A stretch of 26,929 nt of DNA from Sporichthyaceae bacterium (GCA_036493475.1 DASXPS010000171.1:1-26929); one strand, 5' to 3'; shown: positions 5,777 to 24,814, counted from the stretch's first letter. Numbers and translations are program-made. The notes: generated by a model from the letters alone, not told the origin.

Positions 5777-5787
5777 GATTTGGCCTG

Positions 5788-5861
5788 TGGCCAGGGGCGG
5801 GGTCGAACCGCCGACCTACCGCTTTTCAGGCGGTCGCTCGTACCAACTGAGCTACCTGGCC
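5788..5861 (-). tRNA. tRNA-Phe (anticodon GAA). CCA not encoded.
   Basis: Reverse complement reads GGCCAGGTAGCTCAGTTGGTACGAGCGACCGCCTGAAAAGCGGTAGGTCGGCGGTTCGACCCCGCCCCTGGCCA. Cloverleaf with anticodon loop CTGAAAA. Confidence 0.85.
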
Positions 5862-5916
5862 CCGTGCGGGACCCGGCGAGTCTAGTCGTCCCCAGTTGGT
5901 GCGCGTGCCGCGGTCG

Positions 5917-6189
5917 TTACCAGCGATGCTCGTCGCGCACGGTGCGCTGTTGCCCGACGCCTTGGTAGCGCGGGTCGCCGCTGGTGGTCTCGGTGATTTC
6001 CGTGCGCCGACCGCCGCCGACGCCGCCCCAGCTGCTCCAGAACACCATCGACAGCAGGATTCCCGCGGCACCGACGATCATCAGGATCACGCCGACCGAC
6101 TGCAGGTCGACGCCAGTCGTCGTCACGTTTACGGCCCAGGTCAGAATCGCGCCGACCGCGACCAGGAAGATGCCAACGCCCAGACCCAT
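5917..6189 (-). CDS. Small two-TM membrane protein (90 aa), hypothetical.
   Basis: SD GGAGG 7 nt upstream of the ATG at 6189. Two hydrophobic helices (GIFLVAVGAILTWAV; VGVILMIVGAAGILLSMVFW). Lies between tRNA-Asp and tRNA-Phe. Confidence 0.55.
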   Translation of the reverse strand: MGLGVGIFLVAVGAILTWAVNVTTTGVDLQSVGVILMIVGAAGILLSMVFWSSWGGVGGGRRTEITETTSGDPRYQGVGQQRTVRDEHRW

Positions 6190-6364
6190 GGTGGCCTCCG
6201 TCCGTCGTCCTCAGGGGCGTGTTGTTGTCCCCATGGCCTGCCCCGCAGTAGAGGTGGTAATCCACCGGTGGCGCAACGTCCGGGTTTGCCCGGCATCATC
6301 CGCGCTGGTCAGCGGGCAAACCAGAACGCCCCCGAACCGGGGTTCGAGGGCGGACGAGGTGGGG

Positions 6365-6439
6365 CGGTCCCGACGGGATTTGAACCCGCGACCTTCACCT
6401 TGACAGGGTGACGAGCACTCCAAACTGCTCTACGGGACC
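6365..6439 (-). tRNA. tRNA-Asp (anticodon GTC). CCA not encoded.
   Basis: Reverse complement reads GGTCCCGTAGAGCAGTTTGGAGTGCTCGTCACCCTGTCAAGGTGAAGGTCGCGGGTTCAAATCCCGTCGGGACCG. Confidence 0.85.
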
Positions 6440-6530
6440 TCGGCGCGGACAGTGTGACATACCTGCCGCACCGCCCGCGCACCCGTTCCATCTTGTGGTC
6501 CCGGAGCAGAGGCTGCCCGATCAGCGACCT

Positions 6531-6788
6531 TTATCGCTGAGTGCTGCCGCCACCGAGAATCTGGCTGAGCAGCTGGCCAACCGGGTCGCCGGGCGTCGGC
6601 GGAGCCGGTGCCGGTGCCGCGGGGGCGTTCGGCGGCTGCGAGTTCGGGTCGCCCGGGGCGGGCTGCGAGGGGCCGCCGGACTGGCCGGGCGGCGGCGGGG
6701 TGTCAGCGGCGCCGGCCGGACCGGCCGCCACTATCGGGCTGGCGAGGGCACCGGTAAGCACCAAGGCGCCGAGAGTAATCCTGCGCAT
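6531..6788 (-). CDS. Small secreted proline-rich protein (85 aa), hypothetical.
   Basis: Strong SD AAGGAGG 6 nt upstream of the ATG at 6788. Signal peptide MRRITLGALVLTGALASPIVAAGPAGA followed by a Pro/Gly/Ala-rich mature region. Lies between tRNA-Glu and tRNA-Asp. Confidence 0.55.
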   Translation of the reverse strand: MRRITLGALVLTGALASPIVAAGPAGAADTPPPPGQSGGPSQPAPGDPNSQPPNAPAAPAPAPPTPGDPVGQLLSQILGGGSTQR

Positions 6789-6930
6789 GAAGAACCTCCT
6801 TGATCGCAGGCGAAACCGTGCGTGATCAACGCACGCGGTCTACTCAAGGGCGTTCCCGGGGCGTGGTCGTGTCATGCGGGAATTCATCCCGGTTGCATCC
6901 ATTGGGTGCTATGTCACACCGCTCCGCGGG

Positions 6931-7003
6931 TGCCCCCAACGGGATTCGAACCCGTGCTACCGCCTTGAAAGGGCGGCGTCCTGGGCCACTAGACGATGGG
7001 GGC
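6931..7003 (-). tRNA. tRNA-Glu (anticodon TTC). CCA not encoded.
   Basis: Reverse complement reads GCCCCCATCGTCTAGTGGCCCAGGACGCCGCCCTTTCAAGGCGGTAGCACGGGTTCGAATCCCGTTGGGGGCA. Confidence 0.85.
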
Positions 7004-8423: not shown

Positions 8424-10976
8424 CTACCACGAGCCTACGTGGACCACCCGCAGCACGGCAGCAGCCTGCTCGTCGGAGGCGGCCAGGTCGACCTCGGCGC
8501 GGATGCCCCAGTCATGATCACCTGACGGGTCGTCGAATATTTGCCGCACTGTCCAGATGCCGGGTTGGCCGTCGGGGGAACGGTCGACGACCAACAGGTG
8601 CGGGCCGCGCGCGGCGGGCCCGGTGGGTAGTGGGCCGTGCATGGCGGTGTAGTCACCGATGGCGGCGGCCCACTCCGGTGCGCCCCAACTCTGGTCGCCA
8701 TCGAGCTCTTGAAGTTCCGCCCAGCGATGGCGGGAGGCAAGCAACACCCGACGGAACAACGCATTGCGCACCAACACGGTGAACGCCCGGGTGTTCTTGG
8801 TGATCGGCGGGGGCGGGGGTGGTTCGACGGGACGTTCCCGGGTCGGCAGCGCGCCGGCCACCAGCGCCTCCCACTCGTCGAGCAGGCTGGAGTCGGTCTG
8901 CCGGATCAGCTCACCGAGCCAGCTGATCAGATCGTCCAGGTCCTCGGTCTTCTCCGCCTCCGGCACGGTCTGCCGCAGCGCCTTGTATGCGTCGGACAGG
9001 TAGCGCAACACCAGGCCCTCGGCGCGGGCGAGTCCGTAGCCGGAGACGAACTCCCCGAACGTCTGCGCCCGTTCGGTCATCTCGCGCAGCACCGACTTGG
9101 GCGACAGTGGGTACTCGGCGATCCACGGGTGGCCCTGCCGGTACATCTCGTAGGCGGCCTCGAGTAGCTCGGCGAGCGGCTGCGGCCAGCTGACCTCCTC
9201 GAGGCGCTGCATGCGTTCGTCGTACTCGACTCCGTCGGCCTTCATCGCCGCGACGGCCTCCCCGCGGGCGGCCTTCTCCTGCGCGAACAGCACCGGGCGC
9301 GGGTCCTCCAACGTGGCCTCGAGCACCGATACGACGTCCAGGGTGTGCGTATCGGAGGTTGGGTCGAGTAGGTCGAGTGCGGCCAGCGCGAAGGATGACA
9401 ACGGTTGGTTCAGCGCGAAATCCGCCTGCAGATTGACCCTGAGCACCACCCGGCGGCCGGTCGCGTCCGGCGCCGGCAACTTCTCGATGACCTCGGCGGC
9501 CAGCAGTTCACGGTAGATGGCGATGGCCCGGCGGATCATCGCGTTCTGCCGGTGCCGATCCGAGTCGTTCTCCCGCAGCAGGCGGCGCAGGTGCGCGAAG
9601 CCGTCGCCGGGGCGGGCGATGACGTTGAGCAGCATGGAGTGGGTGACCCGCATGCGGGAGACCAGTGGCTCGGGTTCGGCGGCCACCAGTCGGTCGAAGG
9701 TCTCCTCGGTCCAGGACACCTTGCCCTCTTCCGGCTTCACCCGCTGCACCCGCTTGAGCTTCACCGGGTCGTCGCCGGCCTTGGCCACCCGTCGGGCGTT
9801 CTCCACCATGTGCTCGGGGGCCTGCACCACCACGTAGCCCACGGTGTCGAAGCCGGCCCGCCCGGCCCGACCCGCGATCTGGTGGAACTCCCGGGCGCGC
9901 AGCAGGCGGGTGCGCTGCCCGTCGAACTTGGTCAGGCCGGTGAACAACACGGTGCGGATCGGCACGTTGATGCCGACGCCGAGGGTGTCGGTGCCGCAGA
10001 TGACCTTGAGCAGGCCGGCCTGGGTCAGTTGCTCGACCAGCCGGCGGTACTTGGGCAGCATGCCCGCGTGATGCACGCCGACGCCGTGCCGCAGCAGCTT
10101 GGACAGCGTCGCGCCGAATCCCCGGGCGAAGTGGAAGTCGCCGATGCCCGCCGCGACGGCATCTTTCTCCGCCCGCGTGCACAACGTCACCGAGAGCAGC
10201 GCTGAGGCCCGTTCCATGGCCTCGGCCTGGGTGAAATGCACGACGTACAAAGGGGCCTGACGCGATGTCAGCAGGTCGGCGATCGTCTCGTGCACCGGGG
10301 TCAGCGCCCAACTGCTGTGCAGCGGGACGGGGCGCACCGCGGAGGACACCACCGCGGTGGACCGGCCGGTGCGCCGGATCAGGTCGTCGCGAAACCGACT
10401 GACGTCGCCGAGCGTGGCGGACATCAGCAGGAACTGCGCGTCGGTGAGCTCGATCAGCGGCACCTGCCACGCCCAGCCCCGGTCCGGCTCGGCATAGAAG
10501 TGGAACTCGTCCATCACCACCTGTCCGACGTTGGCCGCCCTCCCCTCCCGCAGCGCGATGTTGGCCAGTACCTCCGCGGTGGCGCAGACGATCGGTGCGC
10601 CGGGGTTCACCGCGGCGTCGCCGGTGAGCATGCCGACCCGTTCCGCGCCGAACAGATCACACAACGCGAAGAACTTCTCCGAGACCAGCGCCTTGATCGG
10701 GGCGGTGTAATACGTGCGTCGGCCCTCGGCCAGCGCCGCGAAGTGGGCCCCGGTGGCCACCAGGGATTTGCCCGACCCGGTCGGGGTGGTCAGCACCACG
10801 TTGGAGCCGGACGCCAACTCGATCAGCGCCTCGGTTTGCGCCGGGTAGGGCTCCAGCCCGGTGCCGGTGACCCAGTCGTGAAACGCCTCGAAGATCGCGT
10901 CCGGGTCCGGCTCGGCGGGGAGGGAGTCGACCAGGGCCCTCATCCAATGTTGCTGTGTCGTCATGTCCTGGCCCAT
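8424..10976 (-). CDS. DEAD/DEAH-box (superfamily 2) helicase with a C-terminal DUF3516 domain (Rv3649-like).
   Basis: Walker A TPTGSGKS. DEFH box MDEFHFY. SAT. Motif VI QIAGRAGRAG. About 400-aa C-terminal extension. 850 aa. Confidence 0.85.
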   Translation of the reverse strand: MGQDMTTQQHWMRALVDSLPAEPDPDAIFEAFHDWVTGTGLEPYPAQTEALIELASGSNVVLTTPTGSGKSLVATGAHFAALAEGRRTYYTAPIKALVSEKFFALCDLFGAERVGMLTGDAAVNPGAPIVCATAEVLANIALREGRAANVGQVVMDEFHFYAEPDRGWAWQVPLIELTDAQFLLMSATLGDVSRFRDDLIRRTGRSTAVVSSAVRPVPLHSSWALTPVHETIADLLTSRQAPLYVVHFTQAEAMERASALLSVTLCTRAEKDAVAAGIGDFHFARGFGATLSKLLRHGVGVHHAGMLPKYRRLVEQLTQAGLLKVICGTDTLGVGINVPIRTVLFTGLTKFDGQRTRLLRAREFHQIAGRAGRAGFDTVGYVVVQAPEHMVENARRVAKAGDDPVKLKRVQRVKPEEGKVSWTEETFDRLVAAEPEPLVSRMRVTHSMLLNVIARPGDGFAHLRRLLRENDSDRHRQNAMIRRAIAIYRELLAAEVIEKLPAPDATGRRVVLRVNLQADFALNQPLSSFALAALDLLDPTSDTHTLDVVSVLEATLEDPRPVLFAQEKAARGEAVAAMKADGVEYDERMQRLEEVSWPQPLAELLEAAYEMYRQGHPWIAEYPLSPKSVLREMTERAQTFGEFVSGYGLARAEGLVLRYLSDAYKALRQTVPEAEKTEDLDDLISWLGELIRQTDSSLLDEWEALVAGALPTRERPVEPPPPPPITKNTRAFTVLVRNALFRRVLLASRHRWAELQELDGDQSWGAPEWAAAIGDYTAMHGPLPTGPAARGPHLLVVDRSPDGQPGIWTVRQIFDDPSGDHDWGIRAEVDLAASDEQAAAVLRVVHVGSW

Positions 10977-12338: not shown

Positions 12339-12599
12339 TTAGCGGGCGACGCGCTGGTGGTGGTGATGCTCCACCGGAGCTGCCTGCGCGGGCACCATGC
12401 CACGAACCAGGGAGCCGCGCAGCAGCGCGAGCACCTCGAGCTCGCGGAACCGGCGGTGGCCGCCGAGCGTGCGGATCGAGGTGATCCGGCCCGCGTTGGC
12501 CCAGCGGGTCACGGTCTTCACGTCCACCCGGAACAGCGAGGCCACCTCTGACGGGGTCAGCAGGCGGGAGTCGCTGAGTTCGTTGGCTGCATTCGTCAT
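12339..12599 (-). CDS. BldC-like small MerR/excisionase-family DNA-binding protein (86 aa) with a His-rich tail.
   Basis: LLTPSEVASLFRVDVKTVTRWANAGRITSIRTLGGHRRFRELEVLALL is near-identical in pattern to Streptomyces BldC (LLTPAEVATMFRVDPKTVTRWAKAGKLTSIRTLGGHRRY). ATG at 12599. Confidence 0.7.
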   Translation of the reverse strand: MTNAANELSDSRLLTPSEVASLFRVDVKTVTRWANAGRITSIRTLGGHRRFRELEVLALLRGSLVRGMVPAQAAPVEHHHHQRVAR

Positions 12600-12722: not shown

Positions 12723-14924
12723 GTGCCGGATCGGATTGAGGCGCCGTCGGGCGTTCACCTGCTGGGTGTGACCGTGTGCGGGCCGGCCCCGGTCGGGCGG
12801 GTGCACCTCCCGCTGCACGAGCCGCTGTTGGCGCTTTACGGGCGCAACGGCGTCGGCAAGACCCGGTTGCTGACCGCGGTGATCGCGGCGCTGCGCGGGC
12901 ACCGGACCGACGGCGGGTGGGGCCTGGTGCACATCCACGTGTCCGGCGCGGAAGCCGGGTTGGACCGGCACGGCGAGCTGTGGCGGGACGGACTGGCCCG
13001 CGCCATGCGCGAGCACCTCAACCGGCTGCGCGGGGACGTGGTCGCCCATTTCGCCCGCCGCCGCGACGAGGAGTACGAGGAGGGGCCCGGCGGCGACGAC
13101 TACGTCGAGGTGCTCGAGGACTTCCGCTCGTTCACCGCCGCGGTGGTCGACGAGGCGCACAGCCCCACCAGCCTGCGCGAGCTGGTCGGCGCGCACCTGG
13201 CCGCGCAGCGGATGCTGCTGGACGAGCTGGAGCATGTCGGGGACTTCATGCGCTTCTTCGCGGCGGCTATCAACGAGATCACCGTCGGCGGACACTACGT
13301 GCTGCGCGCGACCGGGGACGCCGACGAGCCGCGCTGGACGGTGTACGCGGCGGCGTCCCCGCAGGACCCGGCCTGCCGGGCGTTGATCGAGCAGGACCGG
13401 GCCAAGGGAGAGGACGACGAGGCACAGGCGGGTGTCGGCGCACCGACGCTGTCCAACTCCGGGTTCCCCTGGCGCGAGCTGTGTGACCTCTCCGACGCGT
13501 TCATCTCCGCCCGTGAACAGGACCCGGACGTGGCCGCGGTCGGCTGGCCGGACTGGGCCGCGGTGCCGGTGTTGGAGGTGGCCACGGTCAGCGCGCCGCT
13601 GGTCGCCATGGTCACCGACGAGACCATTCCCGACGACGTGGACCGGCTCACCCGCGAACACATCCTGCGGGCCGCGGCCGGCCGGGTGCTCGCGTCGTTC
13701 GCCTCCGGCGGCGCGGTGCTGCACCCGGACGTGGAGCCCCTGCTGGAGTCGCTGACCGCGGTCGCCAGCCGGTTCCTGCGCTACGTGTTCCCCGATGCCC
13801 CGGAGCTGGTGTTCGCACCCGGCGATCCGAACGCGTGGCTGGCGGGCCGGCTGCCCGTCTGGGTGGCCCGCTTCCCTGACGGCACGTCACTGCCGCTGCG
13901 CGCGCTGTCCACCGCGCAGAAGCGCTGGGCGTCGCTGTCCTGTGCGCTGGCGGTGTCCATGGCCGCACCGGAGTCGTTGCCGGTGACCTTCCTGTGCGAC
14001 GAACCCGAATCGGGTCTGCACCGGCGCGCGGAGGCCGAACTGCCCGACGCGTTGGCGCGCATCGCCGCGGAGTCCGGCGTGCGCATCGCGGTGGCCACCC
14101 ATTCCCCGGCGTTGCTGGACCCGTCGCGTGCGGTGCTCGTGCACGTCACCCGGGTCGGGTCGGGGGCGGCGGTGGCCCGGCCGATGGACCTGGCGTTGCG
14201 CGCGGAACTGGAACGCGAGTCGATGAGTGAGGACCTCGGGCTGACCCCGGCGGACCTGCTGCAGATGGTGCGCTGCATCGTCATCGTCGAGGGCAAGCAC
14301 GACGAGGTGGTGCTCGGCGGCCTGCTCGCCGAAGACCTGGACATGTGGAGCGTGGTCTACCCGGTGGGTGGGGCCAAGCAGATGGCGTCGCTGGCCAGTG
14401 CGGGTCTGCTGTGGGACTTCACCGATGCGGCCATCGTCATCGTGGTGGACAACATCGCGCGGGCGACGATTGCGCCGGTGTGGGAGAAGGCGCAACGGGC
14501 GATCGCGTCGGGGCGCTTCGCCGCGGCGGAGCGGGCGTTGGTGCCGTTGGGGAAGCTGCCCGGCGCGGAGGCGCGGTGGATGCAGAACCTGCTGCAGCGG
14601 GCCATCCGGGCCAACCGGGCGCACCGCATCCGGTTGGAGACGCTGTCCGCGCCGGACATCATCTGTTACCTGCCCGCGGAGGAGTTCGTGCCCGGCAAGA
14701 CCTGGGACGAGCTGATCGCGGAATGGCGCGAGTCGTTCGGCGACCGTGAGGCGACCAACATCAAGGCGTTCCTGTCCCAGCGATACGACGCAGTGCTCAA
14801 CACCGAGGCGGTCGGCCGGGCGACGGCGCGGGCCAAGCCCAACGGGGAGTTGCGCGCGTTGGGGGCACGGATTCGGGAACTGGCAGCGTTCGGCCCATGG
14901 GCCGGCGAACGATCGGAGGACTGA
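12723..14924 (+). CDS. 733-aa fusion protein: N-terminal SMC/RecF/OLD-type ABC ATPase (AAA_15/AAA_21-like, with a long insertion between Walker A and the signature motif) plus a C-terminal TOPRIM-like (DUF4435/OLD-like) domain. Candidate OLD-family / fused PARIS (AriA-AriB)-like defence protein.
   Basis: ATPase motifs: Walker A LYGRNGVGKTRLL; ABC signature LSTAQKRWASL; Walker B plus D-loop VTFLCDEPESGLH; H-loop VATHSP. TOPRIM-like region: CIVIVEGKHDEVVL (E at 14290-92), then VVYPVGGAKQ, then AIVIVVDNIA (D at 14449-51). The canonical DxD is D-N here. GTG start with a weak SD. Confidence 0.75.
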   Translation: MPDRIEAPSGVHLLGVTVCGPAPVGRVHLPLHEPLLALYGRNGVGKTRLLTAVIAALRGHRTDGGWGLVHIHVSGAEAGLDRHGELWRDGLARAMREHLNRLRGDVVAHFARRRDEEYEEGPGGDDYVEVLEDFRSFTAAVVDEAHSPTSLRELVGAHLAAQRMLLDELEHVGDFMRFFAAAINEITVGGHYVLRATGDADEPRWTVYAAASPQDPACRALIEQDRAKGEDDEAQAGVGAPTLSNSGFPWRELCDLSDAFISAREQDPDVAAVGWPDWAAVPVLEVATVSAPLVAMVTDETIPDDVDRLTREHILRAAAGRVLASFASGGAVLHPDVEPLLESLTAVASRFLRYVFPDAPELVFAPGDPNAWLAGRLPVWVARFPDGTSLPLRALSTAQKRWASLSCALAVSMAAPESLPVTFLCDEPESGLHRRAEAELPDALARIAAESGVRIAVATHSPALLDPSRAVLVHVTRVGSGAAVARPMDLALRAELERESMSEDLGLTPADLLQMVRCIVIVEGKHDEVVLGGLLAEDLDMWSVVYPVGGAKQMASLASAGLLWDFTDAAIVIVVDNIARATIAPVWEKAQRAIASGRFAAAERALVPLGKLPGAEARWMQNLLQRAIRANRAHRIRLETLSAPDIICYLPAEEFVPGKTWDELIAEWRESFGDREATNIKAFLSQRYDAVLNTEAVGRATARAKPNGELRALGARIRELAAFGPWAGERSED

Positions 14925-14926
14925 AC

Positions 14927-16114
14927 GTGGACCTCTCTCTGTCCTCGCGGTGCACGGAATGGCGCGACCGGATCGCGGATTTCATTGCCGAGGTGGTGAT
15001 CCCGCGCGAGCAGGAGGCGTTCATCCGCGGTGTCGACGACGACATGCGGGTTGAGCTACAGGCCGCGGCGCGCGACGCCATGGTGTGGGCGCCACAGGCG
15101 TCGGCCGAACTCGGCGGCGGTGGGTTCGACTTCGTCGAGGCCGCGGTGCTGCTGGAGGAGGCGGGCACGTCGCTGCTCGGCCCGCTGGCGCTGAACTGTC
15201 ACGCGCCGGATGAGGGCAATATCCACATGCTTGACGTCATCGCGACGCCGACACAGAAGGAGAAGTACCTGCGGCCGCTGGTGGCCGGTGAGGTGCGGTC
15301 CTGCTTCGCGATGACCGAGCCCCCGCCGGGGGCCGGCTCGGACCCGTCCGCGCTGCGCACCGTGTGCCGTCGGGTGAACGACGGCTGGATCATCACCGGG
15401 GAGAAGCACTTGATCACCGGCGCCGAGGGCGCGGCCTGGTCGGTGGTGATGGCCAAGGGCGGGTTCGGCTCGGACGGCTCCGAGGGAGCGACGATGTTTT
15501 TGGTCGACACCGATAACCCCGGCTGGGAGGTCAAGGAGCACGCGCGCACGCTGGACTCGACGATGCCCGGTGGGCACTGCCGAGTCGAGCTGCGCGACAT
15601 CCACGTCACCGAGGAGGCAGTGCTCGGCGAGCCCGGCCGCGGGTTCGCCTACGCCCAGGTGCGGTTGGCGCCGGCCCGGTTGACGCACTGCATGCGGTGG
15701 CTGGGTGCGGCCCGGCGGGCGCACGGCATTGCGTTGGATCGGGCGGTGCGCCGGGAAATGTTCGGGTCGCCGTTGGCGCACCACGGCATGGCGCAGGCGA
15801 TGATCGCGGACAACGAGATCGAGTTGGCCGCCGCACGTGCCTTGCTCTGGCAGACCTGTTGGGAGATCGAGAACGGCAAGCCGGGCACCGAGGAGTCCTC
15901 GCGCACGAAGGTGTTCGTCTCCGAGGCGGTGAACCGCATCGTGGACCGCTCGGTGCAGTTGTGCGGCGGCATGGGCACCAGCGAGGAGATGGTGGTCGGC
16001 CGCATCTGGGCCGACATCCGGGCGTTCCGTATTTATGACGGGGCGTCGGAGGTCCACCGCATGTCGATCGCTCGGCACACGGTGAAGCGGGCGAAGGCCC
16101 GCCTGGACGGTTAG
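14927..16114 (+). CDS. Acyl-CoA dehydrogenase family protein.
   Basis: GTG at 14927 with SD GGAGGA (14915-14920), 2 nt after the upstream stop. ACAD motifs: MTEPPPGAGSDPSAL, TGEKHLITG, C-terminal YDGASEVHR. The longer ORF from ATG 14897 overlaps the upstream gene and is less likely. Confidence 0.85.
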   Translation: MDLSLSSRCTEWRDRIADFIAEVVIPREQEAFIRGVDDDMRVELQAAARDAMVWAPQASAELGGGGFDFVEAAVLLEEAGTSLLGPLALNCHAPDEGNIHMLDVIATPTQKEKYLRPLVAGEVRSCFAMTEPPPGAGSDPSALRTVCRRVNDGWIITGEKHLITGAEGAAWSVVMAKGGFGSDGSEGATMFLVDTDNPGWEVKEHARTLDSTMPGGHCRVELRDIHVTEEAVLGEPGRGFAYAQVRLAPARLTHCMRWLGAARRAHGIALDRAVRREMFGSPLAHHGMAQAMIADNEIELAAARALLWQTCWEIENGKPGTEESSRTKVFVSEAVNRIVDRSVQLCGGMGTSEEMVVGRIWADIRAFRIYDGASEVHRMSIARHTVKRAKARLDG

Positions 16115-16992
16115 GGCGCGGTCCCGGCGACCACGATCATTTCGCAGGGCCCGACCCAACCGTCGGGCCCTTCGAATGCCTTCAGGCGATCGGCGATCTC
16201 GGCCCAGGTGGCGTCGCGGCCGGCTTGGTCGAGCCCGGCCATCATCTGATGCAACGCGCCGAACGATTCCTGCGCGAACCGTACGAAGTCCGCGGTGCTG
16301 GGCAGGCACACCGGGGCGTCCAGCCGCACGGCGGAGACGTCCACGAACCCGGCGTCGGCCAGGGCTTGCTCGGCCACGCCCGGATCGCCCAGACAGAACG
16401 GGCCGGGGGCGCCGGGCGGCGGGGGAGCCAGGTTCGCGCGTTCCCGGATCACGCTGATCGGGATGGAGAAGAACGTGTTCGCCGCAGGGGTGGAGTAGAC
16501 CAGCGCCGCGTGGCGGCCACCCGACCGCAGCGCGCGGCGGATGCCTTGCAGGGCCGCAATGCGATCGGGGAAATAGATCAGCCCGACGCGGCTGATCGCC
16601 GCGTCGTAGCAGCCGGGCTCGACCTCGAGTTGCTCGCCGTCCATCACCCGTACCGCGACGTTGGTCAGACCCGCGGCCCGGGCGTTGTGCTCGGCCAGCG
16701 CGAGGATCGCCGGGGCGATGTCGGTGGCCAGCACCCGCCCGTCAGGGCCGACCCGGCGGGCCGCGACCAGCGTCTGCCCGCCGGAACCGGCCGCGACGTC
16801 GAGCACCCGGCAGCCGGTGCTGACCCCGGCCAGGTCGAGCATGGTGTCGGTGGCCGGGCCCAGCCATTTCTCGATGGTCGGTCCCCAATTGTCCCAGGCC
16901 GTGGCGGCCGACTGCCACTGGTCGCGGGTAGTGGCCTTGTAGGCCTGCGCGTCGAAGGTGGGGGTGGTCATCGGGATCTCCTCACGGAGCAT
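16111..16992 (-). CDS. Class I SAM-dependent methyltransferase. Alternative start ATG 16971 with SD GAGGAG.
   Basis: SAM-binding motif VLDVAAGSGGQT ... GRVLATDIAP ... DAAISRVGLIYFPD. The ATG at 16992 overlaps the upstream HEAT gene stop by 1 nt (TGATG). Confidence 0.8.
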   Translation of the reverse strand: MLREEIPMTTPTFDAQAYKATTRDQWQSAATAWDNWGPTIEKWLGPATDTMLDLAGVSTGCRVLDVAAGSGGQTLVAARRVGPDGRVLATDIAPAILALAEHNARAAGLTNVAVRVMDGEQLEVEPGCYDAAISRVGLIYFPDRIAALQGIRRALRSGGRHAALVYSTPAANTFFSIPISVIRERANLAPPPPGAPGPFCLGDPGVAEQALADAGFVDVSAVRLDAPVCLPSTADFVRFAQESFGALHQMMAGLDQAGRDATWAEIADRLKAFEGPDGWVGPCEMIVVAGTAP

Positions 16993-17894
16993 CAGACGTG
17001 TTCGATCCAGCCGTAGATGTCGGCCGGGTCCATGCCGGCCAGTACATCCGGGTGGTCGGTGGTCATGTTGGGGAGATCATGCCGGCGCGGGTGCAGGTCG
17101 GCGGATGGGTGCGCGTCGAGGTCAACGGCGTGCGGGGGATTCGCTGCTGCCCGGCCCGCAGGGGCGACGCGGGTCAGGGCGCGGGCGGCGCGGGACCGGA
17201 CCTCCGGGTCCGGGTCCTCGTGCAGCAGCCGGGTCAGCGGCTCGGTGGCGTTGCGCGCCCCGATCAGGCCGAGGGCGTCGGCGCAAACCGAGCGCACCGC
17301 GGGGCGTTGCTCGTCCAGGCCCCAGAGCAGGCCGGGCACGGCGGGGCTGCCCAGGCGGACCAGGCTGTGCAGGACCAGGGCCGGCTCCAGCCCCCGGCGG
17401 CGAACGAGTCCGGCGACCAGGGCGTTGGCGGCGGCGGGCGCGCCGCTGTAACCGAGTCCGCGGACCGCGGCCCGGCGCACCGCGGGGTCGTGGTCGGCGA
17501 GCAGGCGGAGGAGTTCGCGGGCGCAGGTCTGTGGGGCCAAAGTGCCCGGGGTCTCGGCGGCGCGGGCCCGGTGTCGGTTGGGCAGCCGGGTGCGGCGCAG
17601 CGAGCGGGCCACCGCGCCGCGCGCACGCATCAGCTCGATCAACCGGCTGCGGGCGTCGTAGGGCAGCTGGGCGAGCATGGTGAGCAGGGTTGGTTCGATG
17701 AGCAGCCAGCAGCGGCGGTCGGACCGCGCCAGGTGTTCCAGCGCGCCGGGTTGCTCGGCCTGCACCGCGTGCAGGAACGGCTGCACGTAACTGCGCAGCG
17801 CCTCGTCGCGTTGTGCCGCGGTTACCGCGTGCCCGCGGCGGCCCGCGAGGCACGAGGCCACCAGCAACGCGACGCTGAACAGGGTGTACAGCAT
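16992..17894 (-). CDS. HEAT/PBS-lyase repeat protein with an N-terminal TM anchor (about 300 aa). Start coordinate uncertain by 1 nt.
   Basis: MLYTLFSVALLVASCLAG TM segment. Repeated DPAVRRAAVRGLG / DPDPEVRSRAARAL HEAT-like units. SD GGGAGGA upstream of this ATG. The upstream part of the 425-aa ORF is Arg/Pro-rich and probably not coding. Confidence 0.6.
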   Translation of the reverse strand: MLYTLFSVALLVASCLAGRRGHAVTAAQRDEALRSYVQPFLHAVQAEQPGALEHLARSDRRCWLLIEPTLLTMLAQLPYDARSRLIELMRARGAVARSLRRTRLPNRHRARAAETPGTLAPQTCARELLRLLADHDPAVRRAAVRGLGYSGAPAAANALVAGLVRRRGLEPALVLHSLVRLGSPAVPGLLWGLDEQRPAVRSVCADALGLIGARNATEPLTRLLHEDPDPEVRSRAARALTRVAPAGRAAANPPHAVDLDAHPSADLHPRRHDLPNMTTDHPDVLAGMDPADIYGWIEHV

Positions 17895-18035
17895 GTCGAG
17901 GGTCCTCCCAGCCGTGGTGCGGGTGCCGCCTCCAGCACCCGCACGACGCGTAATGCTTCGGTCAAGCGGCGGCAATGCTTGAGGGGACGGACTCCCGGGT
18001 TGGAGCGGGTCCCCGGCCCGGAGAAGATGGGGCGC

Positions 18036-18893
18036 ATGGGATACGCGCGGCGGATGTGGGCGCGGTACGAGCCGATTCATGCGGTGACGTACTTCGCGCC
18101 GGAGTGCAAGGCGGTCACGGACGCGCTGGGGATGCGCGGGTTCTGGATGGGGTACTGCGCGACGCGCTGTGCGCCGCTGGGCGAGGTCGGGCCGGAGGTG
18201 GCCACCGCGGTGTTCTACGGCTTCCACCCGCAGCGGGCACGGCGGGCACTGCCGGACGCGTGGCGGCACACCTCCGCGGCGCAGGCACTGGCCGCGCGAC
18301 TGGCCGGGATGGACGAGGCGATGCGCCGGTTATGGGGGGACGCGGTCGAGTCACCGGCGGTGGCCGAGGCGGCAGAGTTGGCCGTGGCGGCGGCCCGGGC
18401 GGCGGACTGTGCGGGCCGGGCGCTGGCCGCGGCCAACCAGGCGCTGCCCTGCCCCGACGCCCCGCACCTGGCGCTGTGGCAGGCCACCACCGTGTTGCGT
18501 GAGCATCGGGGGGACGGACACAACGCGGTGCTGATTTCCCGTCAGATCTCACCGGTGCAGGCACACCTGCTCAAGGCCGGGTCCGGGGAGAGCGAGGGTG
18601 AGGCGCTGCGTGTGGGTCGGGTCTGGCCGGAGGAGGTATGGGCGGCCGAGGTGGACAGCATGCGGCGCGCAGGGTTGCTGGATGGCGACGGGGTGTTGAC
18701 TGCGGCCGGCGCGGCGTTGCACTCCGAAATCGAGGCGGCCACCGATGCCGCGGCCGAGCAGCCGTGGCAGGCGCTCGGTGTGGTCGGCACCGAGCGGTTG
18801 GCGCAGTTGCTGACGCCGTTGGCGCGCATGGTGATCGACAGCGGCACGTTGCCGGTGCCCAATCCCGTCGGCGTAGGCCTCGAGGACCTCTAG
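18036..18893 (+). CDS. Conserved actinobacterial hypothetical protein (possibly SCO6745-like family). Start ATG 18027 or 18036.
   Basis: Coherent 285-aa C-terminal portion of ORF 16998..18893: YEPIHAVTYFAPECKAVTDALGMRGFWMGYCATRCAPLG .... The 5' two-thirds of that ORF is antisense to the HEAT gene and rejected. Confidence 0.55.
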   Translation: MGYARRMWARYEPIHAVTYFAPECKAVTDALGMRGFWMGYCATRCAPLGEVGPEVATAVFYGFHPQRARRALPDAWRHTSAAQALAARLAGMDEAMRRLWGDAVESPAVAEAAELAVAAARAADCAGRALAAANQALPCPDAPHLALWQATTVLREHRGDGHNAVLISRQISPVQAHLLKAGSGESEGEALRVGRVWPEEVWAAEVDSMRRAGLLDGDGVLTAAGAALHSEIEAATDAAAEQPWQALGVVGTERLAQLLTPLARMVIDSGTLPVPNPVGVGLEDL

Positions 18894-24411: not shown

Positions 24412-24452
24412 CGGGGCCGGTTACGCTCTGCGTGCGCGCCTGTCGGCACGTT

Positions 24453-24525
24453 GGGCCGCTAGCTCAATTGGCAGAGCAGCGGACTTTTAATCCGCGGGTT
24501 CGGGGTTCGATCCCCCGGCGGCCCA
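24453..24525 (+). tRNA. tRNA-Lys (anticodon TTT). CCA not encoded.
   Basis: GGGCCGCTAGCTCAATTGGCAGAGCAGCGGACTTTTAATCCGCGGGTTCGGGGTTCGATCCCCCGGCGGCCCA. Confidence 0.85.
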
Positions 24526-24814
24526 CCCTACTGATGTATGGGCTCGGCTGATGCTTGACAGTTGAGCTTCGGCTGATGTGTGAAGCGCCGACTTGTATGG
24601 GATCCACGGGGTGCGGGTCAGGTTGATCTAGCGTCCCGCCGTGGTGTCGACCGGAACGGCTCGTGAAGCGCTTGCCGCCTTCGGGCTGGCTCTCCCAGGG
24701 TTTGTCGCCGGTCGGCACCGCGGGCTCGTGGTCTGACTCAACAGAGGACTGATCGTCCAACCGGAGCTTGAAGTCGGCGTGTCGTCCGCGGGTTACCACT
24801 GTCGTCATCGCGGA

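Follow-up and report, generated by a model that had tools for sequence, protein, structure and literature searches.

The window considered here, the whole 26,929-nucleotide (nt) stretch of Sporichthyaceae DNA that was analysed (DASXPS010000171.1), carries a plus-strand gene at 12723..14924. On balance, its product is probably a single-chain OLD-family protein, in which an ABC ATPase is joined to a Toprim domain, and its ancestral role was most likely to defend the cell against phages or other mobile elements. The gene begins with GTG, ends with TGA, and contains 733 codons. The open reading frame (ORF), its translation, and its codon-position GC identify it as a genuine gene: the GC content at the third position (0.92) is usual for a real gene in sequence of 70% GC, and the 733-amino acid (aa) product is 100% identical to a protein (P0001) deposited from a Sporichthyaceae metagenome-assembled genome (MAG).

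The ATPase domain, including an inserted region, covers residues 1-490 (12723..14192, +). It is matched by Pfam AAA_21 at 2.3e-10 (41 bits, compared with a cut-off of 27) and is also supported by the folds that the full-length structural model retrieves. Within the Walker A/P-loop, YGRNGVGKT (residues 39-47; 12837..12863, +), G40, G43, G45, K46, and T47 are invariant in 19 of 19 Sporichthyaceae sequences and are conserved at 90% or more among 66 relatives that are 26-43% identical to the target, the alignment of which also provided the profile used below. The ABC signature LSTAQKRW (residues 395-402; 13905..13928, +) aligns to that of AriA and PtuA; S396, A398, Q399, and R401 do not vary among the same 19 sequences, and S396, A398, R401, and W402 are at least 90% conserved in the wider family. 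Conservation and alignment likewise place Walker B, the catalytic glutamate, and the D-loop region in VTFLCDEPESGLH (residues 421-433; 13983..14021, +), a stretch that pairs with 'IIEEPEMYLH' of Thermus OLD. Here D426, E427, P428, and E429 are invariant in all 66 relatives, as is H460 of the H-loop, ATHSP (residues 458-462; 14094..14108, +). Because these residues are invariant in the Sporichthyaceae and nearly so among relatives this divergent, the ATPase motifs cannot be attributed to chance, and the target has the Walker A, Walker B, and H-loop that an OLD-family ATPase should have.

From Lys46 of Walker A to Ser396 of the signature there is an insertion of 349 aa. Its helical part, residues 86-187 (12978..13283, +), consists of four long helices in the AF2 model (residues 86-117, 125-142, 151-166, and 172-187) and is the least conserved segment family-wide (22% mean identity). 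By analogy with the insertion of Thermus OLD (PMC7049728), it is a candidate dimerisation module.

The ATPase is connected to the Toprim domain by a linker, LGLTPADLLQ (residues 505-514; 14235..14264, +), in which G506 is invariant and L505 is conserved at 90% or more. The Toprim core then spans residues 516-650 (14268..14672, +). Its first motif, VEGKHD (residues 522-527; 14286..14303, +), lies within IVIVEGKHDE (519-528). In the profile alignment, E523 falls on E377 of Thermus OLD, a metal A residue, and D527 falls on D381, a metal B residue, these roles having been established for the Thermus enzyme (PMC7049728). The E-G-x-x-D/E motif of the OLD family is thus present, with VEGxHD lying over VEGYGD of Thermus OLD and conserved in 64-65 of the 66 relatives (V522, E523, and G524 in 65; H526 and D527 in 64). 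H526, inside the motif, is specific to this family. Following strand 2, Gly550 (14370..14372, +), within PVGGAK (547-552), is found in 66/66 relatives.

After strand 3, the position of the DxD metal-A pair of Thermus OLD (D431/D433) is occupied by a variant, D576-N577-I578 (14448..14456, +), recognised by its conservation within IVIVVDNI (571-578). D576 is present in 65/66 relatives and N577 in 42/66, while the residue two positions after D576 is always Leu, Val, or Ile and never Asp (66/66). Asn577 is therefore the 'x' of DxD, and it is Ile578 that replaces the second aspartate. E523 is separated from G550 by 27 aa and from D576 by 53 aa, compared with 54 aa between E377 and D431 in Thermus OLD, a spacing that suggests that D576 is the counterpart of D431.

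The remaining conserved positions lie farther downstream. W587 is retained in 60/66 relatives, and Glu616 (14568..14570, +; 61/66), in the helix between strands 3 and 4, might conceivably substitute for the lost metal ligand. Arg635 (14625..14627, +), just before strand 4, is found in 66/66. Past strand 4 there is a conserved motif, SAPDIICYLP (residues 642-651; 14646..14675, +), in which D645 (65/66), Y649 (61/66), and L650 (64/66) are nearly constant and S642 is present in 33/66. The chain ends in a helical region (residues 652-722; 14676..14888, +), with helices predicted at residues 661-671, 680-688, 694-702, and 708-723, and with W661 and K681 each kept in 65/66. S642 and D645 are candidate metal-B ligands, since they occupy the post-strand-4 position of Thermus OLD S478/E480, and R635 and K681 are candidates for the role of Thermus OLD R487 or Burkholderia pseudomallei OLD K562 (PMC7049728). 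All four sit where topology, rather than residue-level superposition, would place the equivalents of Thermus S478/E480/R487 and B. pseudomallei T506/E508/K562.

All of the catalytic residues proposed are retained in 19/19 Sporichthyaceae sequences. Furthermore, no other segment of the protein is as well conserved as the linker plus Toprim, which shows 86% identity within Sporichthyaceae (compared with 71-81% for other segments) and 39% family-wide (compared with 22% for the insertion). Given that the second aspartate is absent from 66/66 relatives and that the other active-site positions are nearly invariant, its loss is a trait of the family rather than a sign of decay. At the level of sequence, the signature of the clade is V-E-G-x-H-D, G, D-N-hydrophobic, R, S-x-P-D-I-I-C-Y-L-P, and K.

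An earlier reading of this DNA, made from the sequence alone (the sequence-only reading), had anticipated much of this. The complete ABC ATPase motif set that it listed is present and conserved throughout, and its insertion of roughly 350 aa agrees with the 349 aa counted. The order of its Toprim motifs and its distance of about 25 aa from the glutamate to the glycine also hold, but the distance of about 60 aa given from the glutamate to the aspartate was too long. It was right that the DxD is non-canonical and wrong in assigning the asparagine to the position of the second aspartate. Its suggestion of a divergent or inactivated nuclease is unlikely, since the loss of the second aspartate is shared by the whole family and the linker and Toprim are conserved best.

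A side branch represented by two metagenomic sequences, P0023 and P0030, shows a different pattern. These proteins keep the ATPase motifs but have lost the Toprim residues and part of the C-terminal helical region; the substitutions include E523 to D, G524 to D, H526 to V, D576 to S, and D645 to S. Judged from these changes, the branch looks like a natural nuclease-dead derivative, and its loss of the Toprim is unlike the pattern in the target.

On its own, the target sequence obtains only generic ATPase matches: AAA_21 and, in PADLOC, AriA, mad3, HEC-01A, GajA, and Old at 1e-12 to 1e-6. These span residues ~380-475, with the GajA and Old alignments extending into IVIVEG, and a Pfam search with residues 491-733 gives no match. 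When the 66-sequence profile is compared with the PDB, the best relative is the Class 1 OLD of Thermus scotoductus (6p74; E 8.4e-15). Without a break, this alignment extends from Walker B across the linker and as far as the first Toprim motif, where 'lVEGeHDeaV' lies over 'LLVEGYGDRVA', and GajA is aligned over the same span. The structural models agree. The full-length model (pLDDT 74) finds as its top folds the retron Eco8 effector (9lpa; Foldseek 1.4e-9 over 833 aligned columns) and then Thermus OLD, ahead of the heads of SMC and Rad50. With the C-terminal region as query, the OLD C-terminal regions of Xanthomonas are the only matches at E<=1e-3, and Foldseek aligns all 234 aa of the region to these Class 2 structures, which comprise a Toprim and a helical domain. 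The Toprim fold that characterises the OLD family is thus present in the C-terminal region.

In addition, Pfam OLD-like_TOPRIM (PF20469) is matched, below its gathering score, at the correct position in 14/66 relatives, and a haloarchaeal sequence from the OLD clades of Yang et al. 2025 is aligned by hhalign, in a partial comparison, at a probability of 97% over the ABC signature, the linker (LGxxxSxLxQ), and VEGxxD. Taken together, the profile, fold, Pfam, and hhalign results support an assignment to the OLD family and not to PARIS. The sequence-only reading's fusion of an ABC ATPase to an OLD-kind Toprim is borne out by both the profile and the folds, and the structural similarity that it asked of the C-terminal region is to OLD C-terminal regions. 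Its proposed search of this region with hidden Markov models (HMMs) divides: DUF4435 matches none of the 66 relatives, whereas OLD-like_TOPRIM is found, at the level just given, in relatives and not in the target itself.

When 1.84 billion cluster representatives were searched exhaustively with a profile, 574 clusters (50% identity) were recovered at E<=1e-30. Almost all of these measure 650-790 aa and span both the ATPase and the C-terminal region, so this is a real, sizeable, and very diverse family. Individual clusters contain very few sequences, most of them from metagenomes; the DNA that they come from has a GC content of 63-69%, and the named hosts all belong to Actinomycetota. Homologues with 67-91% identity to the target are all from Sporichthyaceae and include both cultured Sporichthya species; the next relative is 43% identical. 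Further homologue searches, one started from the 66-sequence alignment and another from the family medoid (P0038), added almost nothing. A search of genome contigs with the peptide PDIICYLP found one MAG locus, Sporichthya having PDVICYLP instead. Existing annotation covers the family poorly: Pfam sees only the ATPase, PADLOC gives only generic ATPase matches, and NCBIfam has no specific model. The automatic names assigned by JGI are EcfA2 and CcmA-type ATPase, and NCBI calls one member an 'ATP-dependent nuclease'. The family is a sparse, uncurated, mostly actinobacterial clade.

Outside Sporichthyaceae, every relative examined lies in a different neighbourhood. One member (P0024) is adjacent to DarTG, with DarT, Macro, and NYN genes; others are accompanied by a CAP12/PCTIR TIR protein with IS21 and SNIPE; by an integrase, a resolvase, and a CoiA nuclease; by a TrwC relaxase and REase-ARP; by GmrSD; by NERD, PDDEXK, and a YjiV-type helicase; or by PIN_8 and an SCO5918-family gene. 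The P0023/P0030 branch is found with RmuC and a DUF4011 helicase, the Isoptericola member with small hypothetical genes and an HTH_17 gene, and the Aldersonia member with insertion sequence (IS) fragments. No partner gene recurs, and fadE, the acyl-CoA dehydrogenase gene that adjoins the target, is never found beside these relatives. In the 14 loci examined, no UvrD/GajB-like helicase gene adjoins, and no reverse-transcriptase domain was seen among the neighbours in the window or the related loci, the retron noncoding RNA not having been searched for separately. Given that the gene in the wider family is a lone accessory gene in settings of a mobile or defence type, its ancestral role was most likely defence; for the wider family as a whole, a reading of ten neighbourhoods, made qualitatively, makes defence against phages or other mobile elements the likely function.

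Two further observations concern these relatives. A family member with 34% identity over residues 275-724 is found at 397705-399072 (L016) on a 1-megabase plasmid of Arthrobacter sp. StoSoilB13 (NZ_AP024649.1). The SCO5918-family gene (PF28009) adjoins two otherwise unrelated members, P0044 and P0029 (L009, 7192-7770, minus strand; L012, 8068-8811, plus strand), and could be either an occasional partner or a coincidence.

In Sporichthyaceae the setting is fixed. The gene downstream of the target, fadE (14927..16114, +; four Acyl-CoA_dh domains), is the constant neighbour, found in 4/4 Sporichthyaceae loci examined. In the window it begins with GTG at 14927, 2 nt past the target stop, and is preceded by a ribosome-binding site, GGAGGA, at 14915-14920. 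A mechanical list of ORFs instead starts fadE at ATG 14897, with a 28-nt overlap with the target, but GTG 14927, with GGAGGA 6 nt upstream, is the likelier start. A scan for promoters and terminators around the target found nothing above background and no convincing terminator between target and fadE; the two genes are probably co-transcribed. In the other Sporichthyaceae loci, the spacing between them varies from a 4-nt overlap (locus L003) to a 235-nt gap.

Sporichthya polymorpha and two other Sporichthyaceae genomes share the order helicase, LCP, peptidase S9 (with or without an ACT-domain gene), target, and fadE. Identities between the window and these loci are 67-72% for the target, 66-71% for LCP, 73-77% for fadE, and 76-79% for the helicase. 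Because the target diverges at the rate of its neighbours and occupies the same locus in four genomes, it has been inherited vertically since the ancestor of the family: a single copy became established upstream of fadE in the Sporichthyaceae ancestor and has been kept under purifying selection. The sample behind this statement consists of two cultured species plus a modest set of MAGs. A recent horizontal insertion in the window was considered and rejected, given the uniform GC, the lack of mobile genes, and the synteny in four genomes.

On the other side of the target, and divergent from it across a 123-base-pair spacer, is a BldC-like helix-turn-helix gene of 86 aa (12339..12599, -; HTH_17 at 7.6e-12, MerR at 8e-8). 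The syntenic loci of S. polymorpha and the two other genomes (L001, L003, and L004) lack it and instead have a peptidase S9 gene, which the ACT-domain gene may accompany; on account of this absence it was rejected as a functional partner. The arrangement described by the sequence-only reading, in which the target lies 2 nt upstream of an acyl-CoA dehydrogenase gene, diverges from a BldC-like gene, and has no GajB/UvrD partner, is found as stated, the last point applying both to the window and to the Sporichthyaceae loci. The taxon that it implied, Corynebacteriales with Mycobacterium smegmatis as the host for tests, is incorrect, since the window is from Sporichthyaceae. It had also held that universal conservation as a core gene beside fadE would point to housekeeping; within Sporichthyaceae the gene is indeed syntenic, vertically inherited, and next to fadE, whereas outside that family the members are scattered accessory genes and never lie beside fadE.

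The window as a whole is ordinary chromosome, with a tRNA cluster, a DEAD-box helicase, an LCP protein, the BldC-like gene, the target, fadE, a methyltransferase, and hydrolases. The helicase (850 aa; 8424-10976, -), which has a C-terminal DUF3516 domain (1e-204) and the LCP-family gene next to it, is a member of the syntenic block but is on the opposite strand, is not adjacent to the target, and is not UvrD-like. The cluster of tRNA-Phe, tRNA-Asp, and tRNA-Glu lies upstream (5787-7003, -) and a tRNA-Lys(UUU) downstream (24452-24528, +); neither an integrase nor a repeat is associated with the tRNA genes of the window. At 16992-18893, long ORFs on opposite strands overlap. The minus-strand ORF (16992-18269) has HEAT repeats in residues 264-370, and in the plus-strand ORF (16998-18893) a match to HTH_67 is limited to residues 350-619. 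The probable explanation is a pair of divergent genes, the one on the plus strand beginning near 18000.

By analogy, a mechanism for the protein can be proposed from GajA and from the OLD enzymes of Thermus and B. pseudomallei. In this model, the N-terminal ABC ATPase, with its motifs intact, would oligomerise through the large, partly helical insertion, and the binding or hydrolysis of nucleotide would gate the C-terminal Toprim, to which it is joined by the conserved linker. The Toprim would then nick or cleave nucleic acid through metal-ion catalysis, using a metal-A site composed of E523 and D576 and one ligand short, a metal-B site composed of D527, S642, and D645, and R635 or K681 to stabilise the transition state. 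DNA would be the likelier substrate, although RNA is also possible.

Several observations weigh against the interpretation of the target as an OLD-family protein with an ancestral role in defence. The window contains no integrase, IS, or recognised defence gene, and its GC is uniform; fixation throughout a bacterial family is atypical of defence genes; and no family member was found in viral contigs or in the phage collection. The association of the relatives with defence or mobile settings is a qualitative reading of the ten neighbourhoods rather than a statistical enrichment, and such settings and a patchy distribution are seen in the wider family, not in the window or the Sporichthyaceae clade. 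As for the assignment to the OLD family, HMMER comparison of a C-terminal-domain profile with PDB sequences gave no meaningful match, and the relatives that match OLD-like_TOPRIM score 15.9-20.9 bits and never reach the gathering score of 23.2. The DxD pair of the OLD family is not intact in the target; the missing second aspartate binds metal A in the OLD proteins of Thermus and B. pseudomallei, and thus catalysis may be altered or weak. Finally, for residues other than E523 and D527, the counterparts named were assigned from spacing and topology rather than from superposition.

It is possible, if rather unlikely, that the Sporichthyaceae protein is a domesticated housekeeping OLD. According to this idea, a one-aspartate variant that was once mobile now performs, instead of defence, a cellular task such as repairing DNA, maintaining the chromosome, or controlling the cell cycle, and would be for bacteria what Cran1 is for archaea. 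The position upstream of fadE in every Sporichthyaceae genome examined, a rate of divergence like that of housekeeping neighbours, the retention of the catalytic residues in all 19 sequences, and the lack of mobile or defence genes in the window would all be accounted for. There is also a precedent in an essential, non-defence OLD in which the ATPase is more important than the nuclease (PMC12796447). However, the closest relatives, at 35-43% identity, belong to the accessory genome and have surroundings of a defence or mobile kind, the target is not linked to a repair or replication operon, and its sole constant neighbour encodes a fatty-acid enzyme. Furthermore, stable vertical inheritance is compatible with defence, and the fixed position is known from two cultured species and a modest MAG set.

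A less probable alternative is that the target is an ATPase with a catalytically dead Toprim and that its C-terminal domain is a nucleic-acid-binding or regulatory module. The absence of the second metal-A aspartate from 66/66 relatives would be consistent with this, as would the P0023/P0030 branch, which lacks most Toprim residues and keeps the ATPase motifs. In addition, the Toprim of Escherichia coli YbjD, a Class 1 OLD, is described in one report as dispensable and its ATPase as essential (PMC13261556). Yet E523, H526, D527, D576, E616, R635, D645, and K681 persist in 61-66 of the 66 relatives despite identities of only 26-43%, and the Toprim segment is the most conserved, a pattern expected of an active site and not of a relic. 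Moreover, single-site mutants of Thermus OLD still nick DNA (PMC7049728), and thus one lost ligand need not end activity.

The sequence-only reading had called the protein OLD/PARIS-like. It is very unlikely that the gene is a fused PARIS, with AriA and AriB in one chain, in which a phage trigger is sensed and a tRNA-cleaving Toprim is released or activated. AriA is the best match by E-value both in PADLOC and among single-clade PDB matches, and fused AriAB genes have been reported (PMC10568477). However, the AriA matches are confined to residues 382-475, the generic C-lobe of the ATPase, and the broader profile ranks Thermus OLD above AriA (8e-15 versus 8e-12). The C-terminal fold is nearest to OLD C-terminal regions, with AriB not among the best 60 matches, and DUF4435 is matched in 0/66 relatives. 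The names EcfA2 and CcmA-type ATPase, together with sub-threshold NCBIfam matches to cbiO, AztA, and ccmA, would suggest the ATP-binding subunit of an ordinary ABC transporter, but these matches score ~24 bits against cut-offs above 190 and are confined to the Walker B region, no permease gene is nearby, and the domain architecture, with its 349-aa insertion and fused Toprim, rules the idea out.

The interpretation as an OLD-family protein with an ancestral defence role is thus retained. OLD proteins are already known, and a recent survey includes 11 further uncharacterised OLD clades, U1-U11 (PMC12796447), so the basic identification is not surprising. What is new is the family-wide D-N-hydrophobic variant together with a conserved histidine, the combination of a Class 2-type C-terminal region with the lack of a helicase partner, and fixation at the family level in Sporichthyaceae. 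A 2023 review (PMC10568477) asked by what means the ATPase governs the Toprim nuclease and into how many distinct classes these proteins fall. The clade constitutes a natural experiment in Toprim chemistry, in which a metal ligand is gone, a histidine has been gained within E-G-x-x-D, and the rest has been kept. A lone gene with a Class 2-type C-terminal region separates C-terminal architecture from dependence on GajB, and retention at a single site over the evolution of a family offers a test of non-defence roles for a bacterial OLD, as for the archaeal Cran1. A dedicated HMM would also correct the labels 'EcfA2' and 'CcmA ATPase'.

OLD-family enzymes underlie the anti-phage systems P2 Old, Gabija, retron Eco8, and PARIS, and the target can be compared with each of the groups concerned. 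PARIS shares with the target the AAA_21/AAA_15 ATPase group (an AriA match of 2e-12 on the C-lobe) and the pairing of an ATPase with a Toprim, but it consists of AriA plus AriB, the latter being a DUF4435 Toprim, whereas the target is one polypeptide with no sign of tRNA targeting, no DUF4435 signal in its family, and a fold closer to OLD C-terminal regions. Class 3 OLD provides the top full-length Foldseek match, the retron Eco8 effector, but the target and related loci lack a reverse transcriptase, and NCBIfam retron_eff_Eco8 scores 12 bits against a cut-off of 250. Class 5 OLD, represented by Cran1 of Sulfolobales (PMC12796447), is, like the target, conserved vertically in its lineage rather than patchy. 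Cran1 is archaeal and the target actinobacterial, and the likeness is one of distribution; given this shared vertical conservation, a non-defence role is possible.

Class 2 OLD, which includes GajA of Gabija and the B. pseudomallei and Xanthomonas campestris proteins (C-terminal regions 6nk8 and 6njv), has the nearest C-terminal fold but only 14-18% sequence identity to the target. It differs in its DxD, which is not conserved in the target, and, in Gabija, in the UvrD/PcrA-like GajB immediately downstream, where the target has fadE. Class 1 OLD, which includes P2 Old, Thermus OLD, Vibrio cholerae OLD, and E. coli YbjD, is like the target a single gene without a dedicated partner, and its Thermus member is both the best PDB profile match of the target and the second-best full-length fold. 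Such standalone Class 1 proteins can defend, according to published accounts (PMC12392090, PMC13261556). The best-supported placement of the target is in a standalone clade that combines a Toprim one aspartate short with an intact ABC signature, a Class 2-like C-terminal region, and the lone-gene lifestyle of Class 1.

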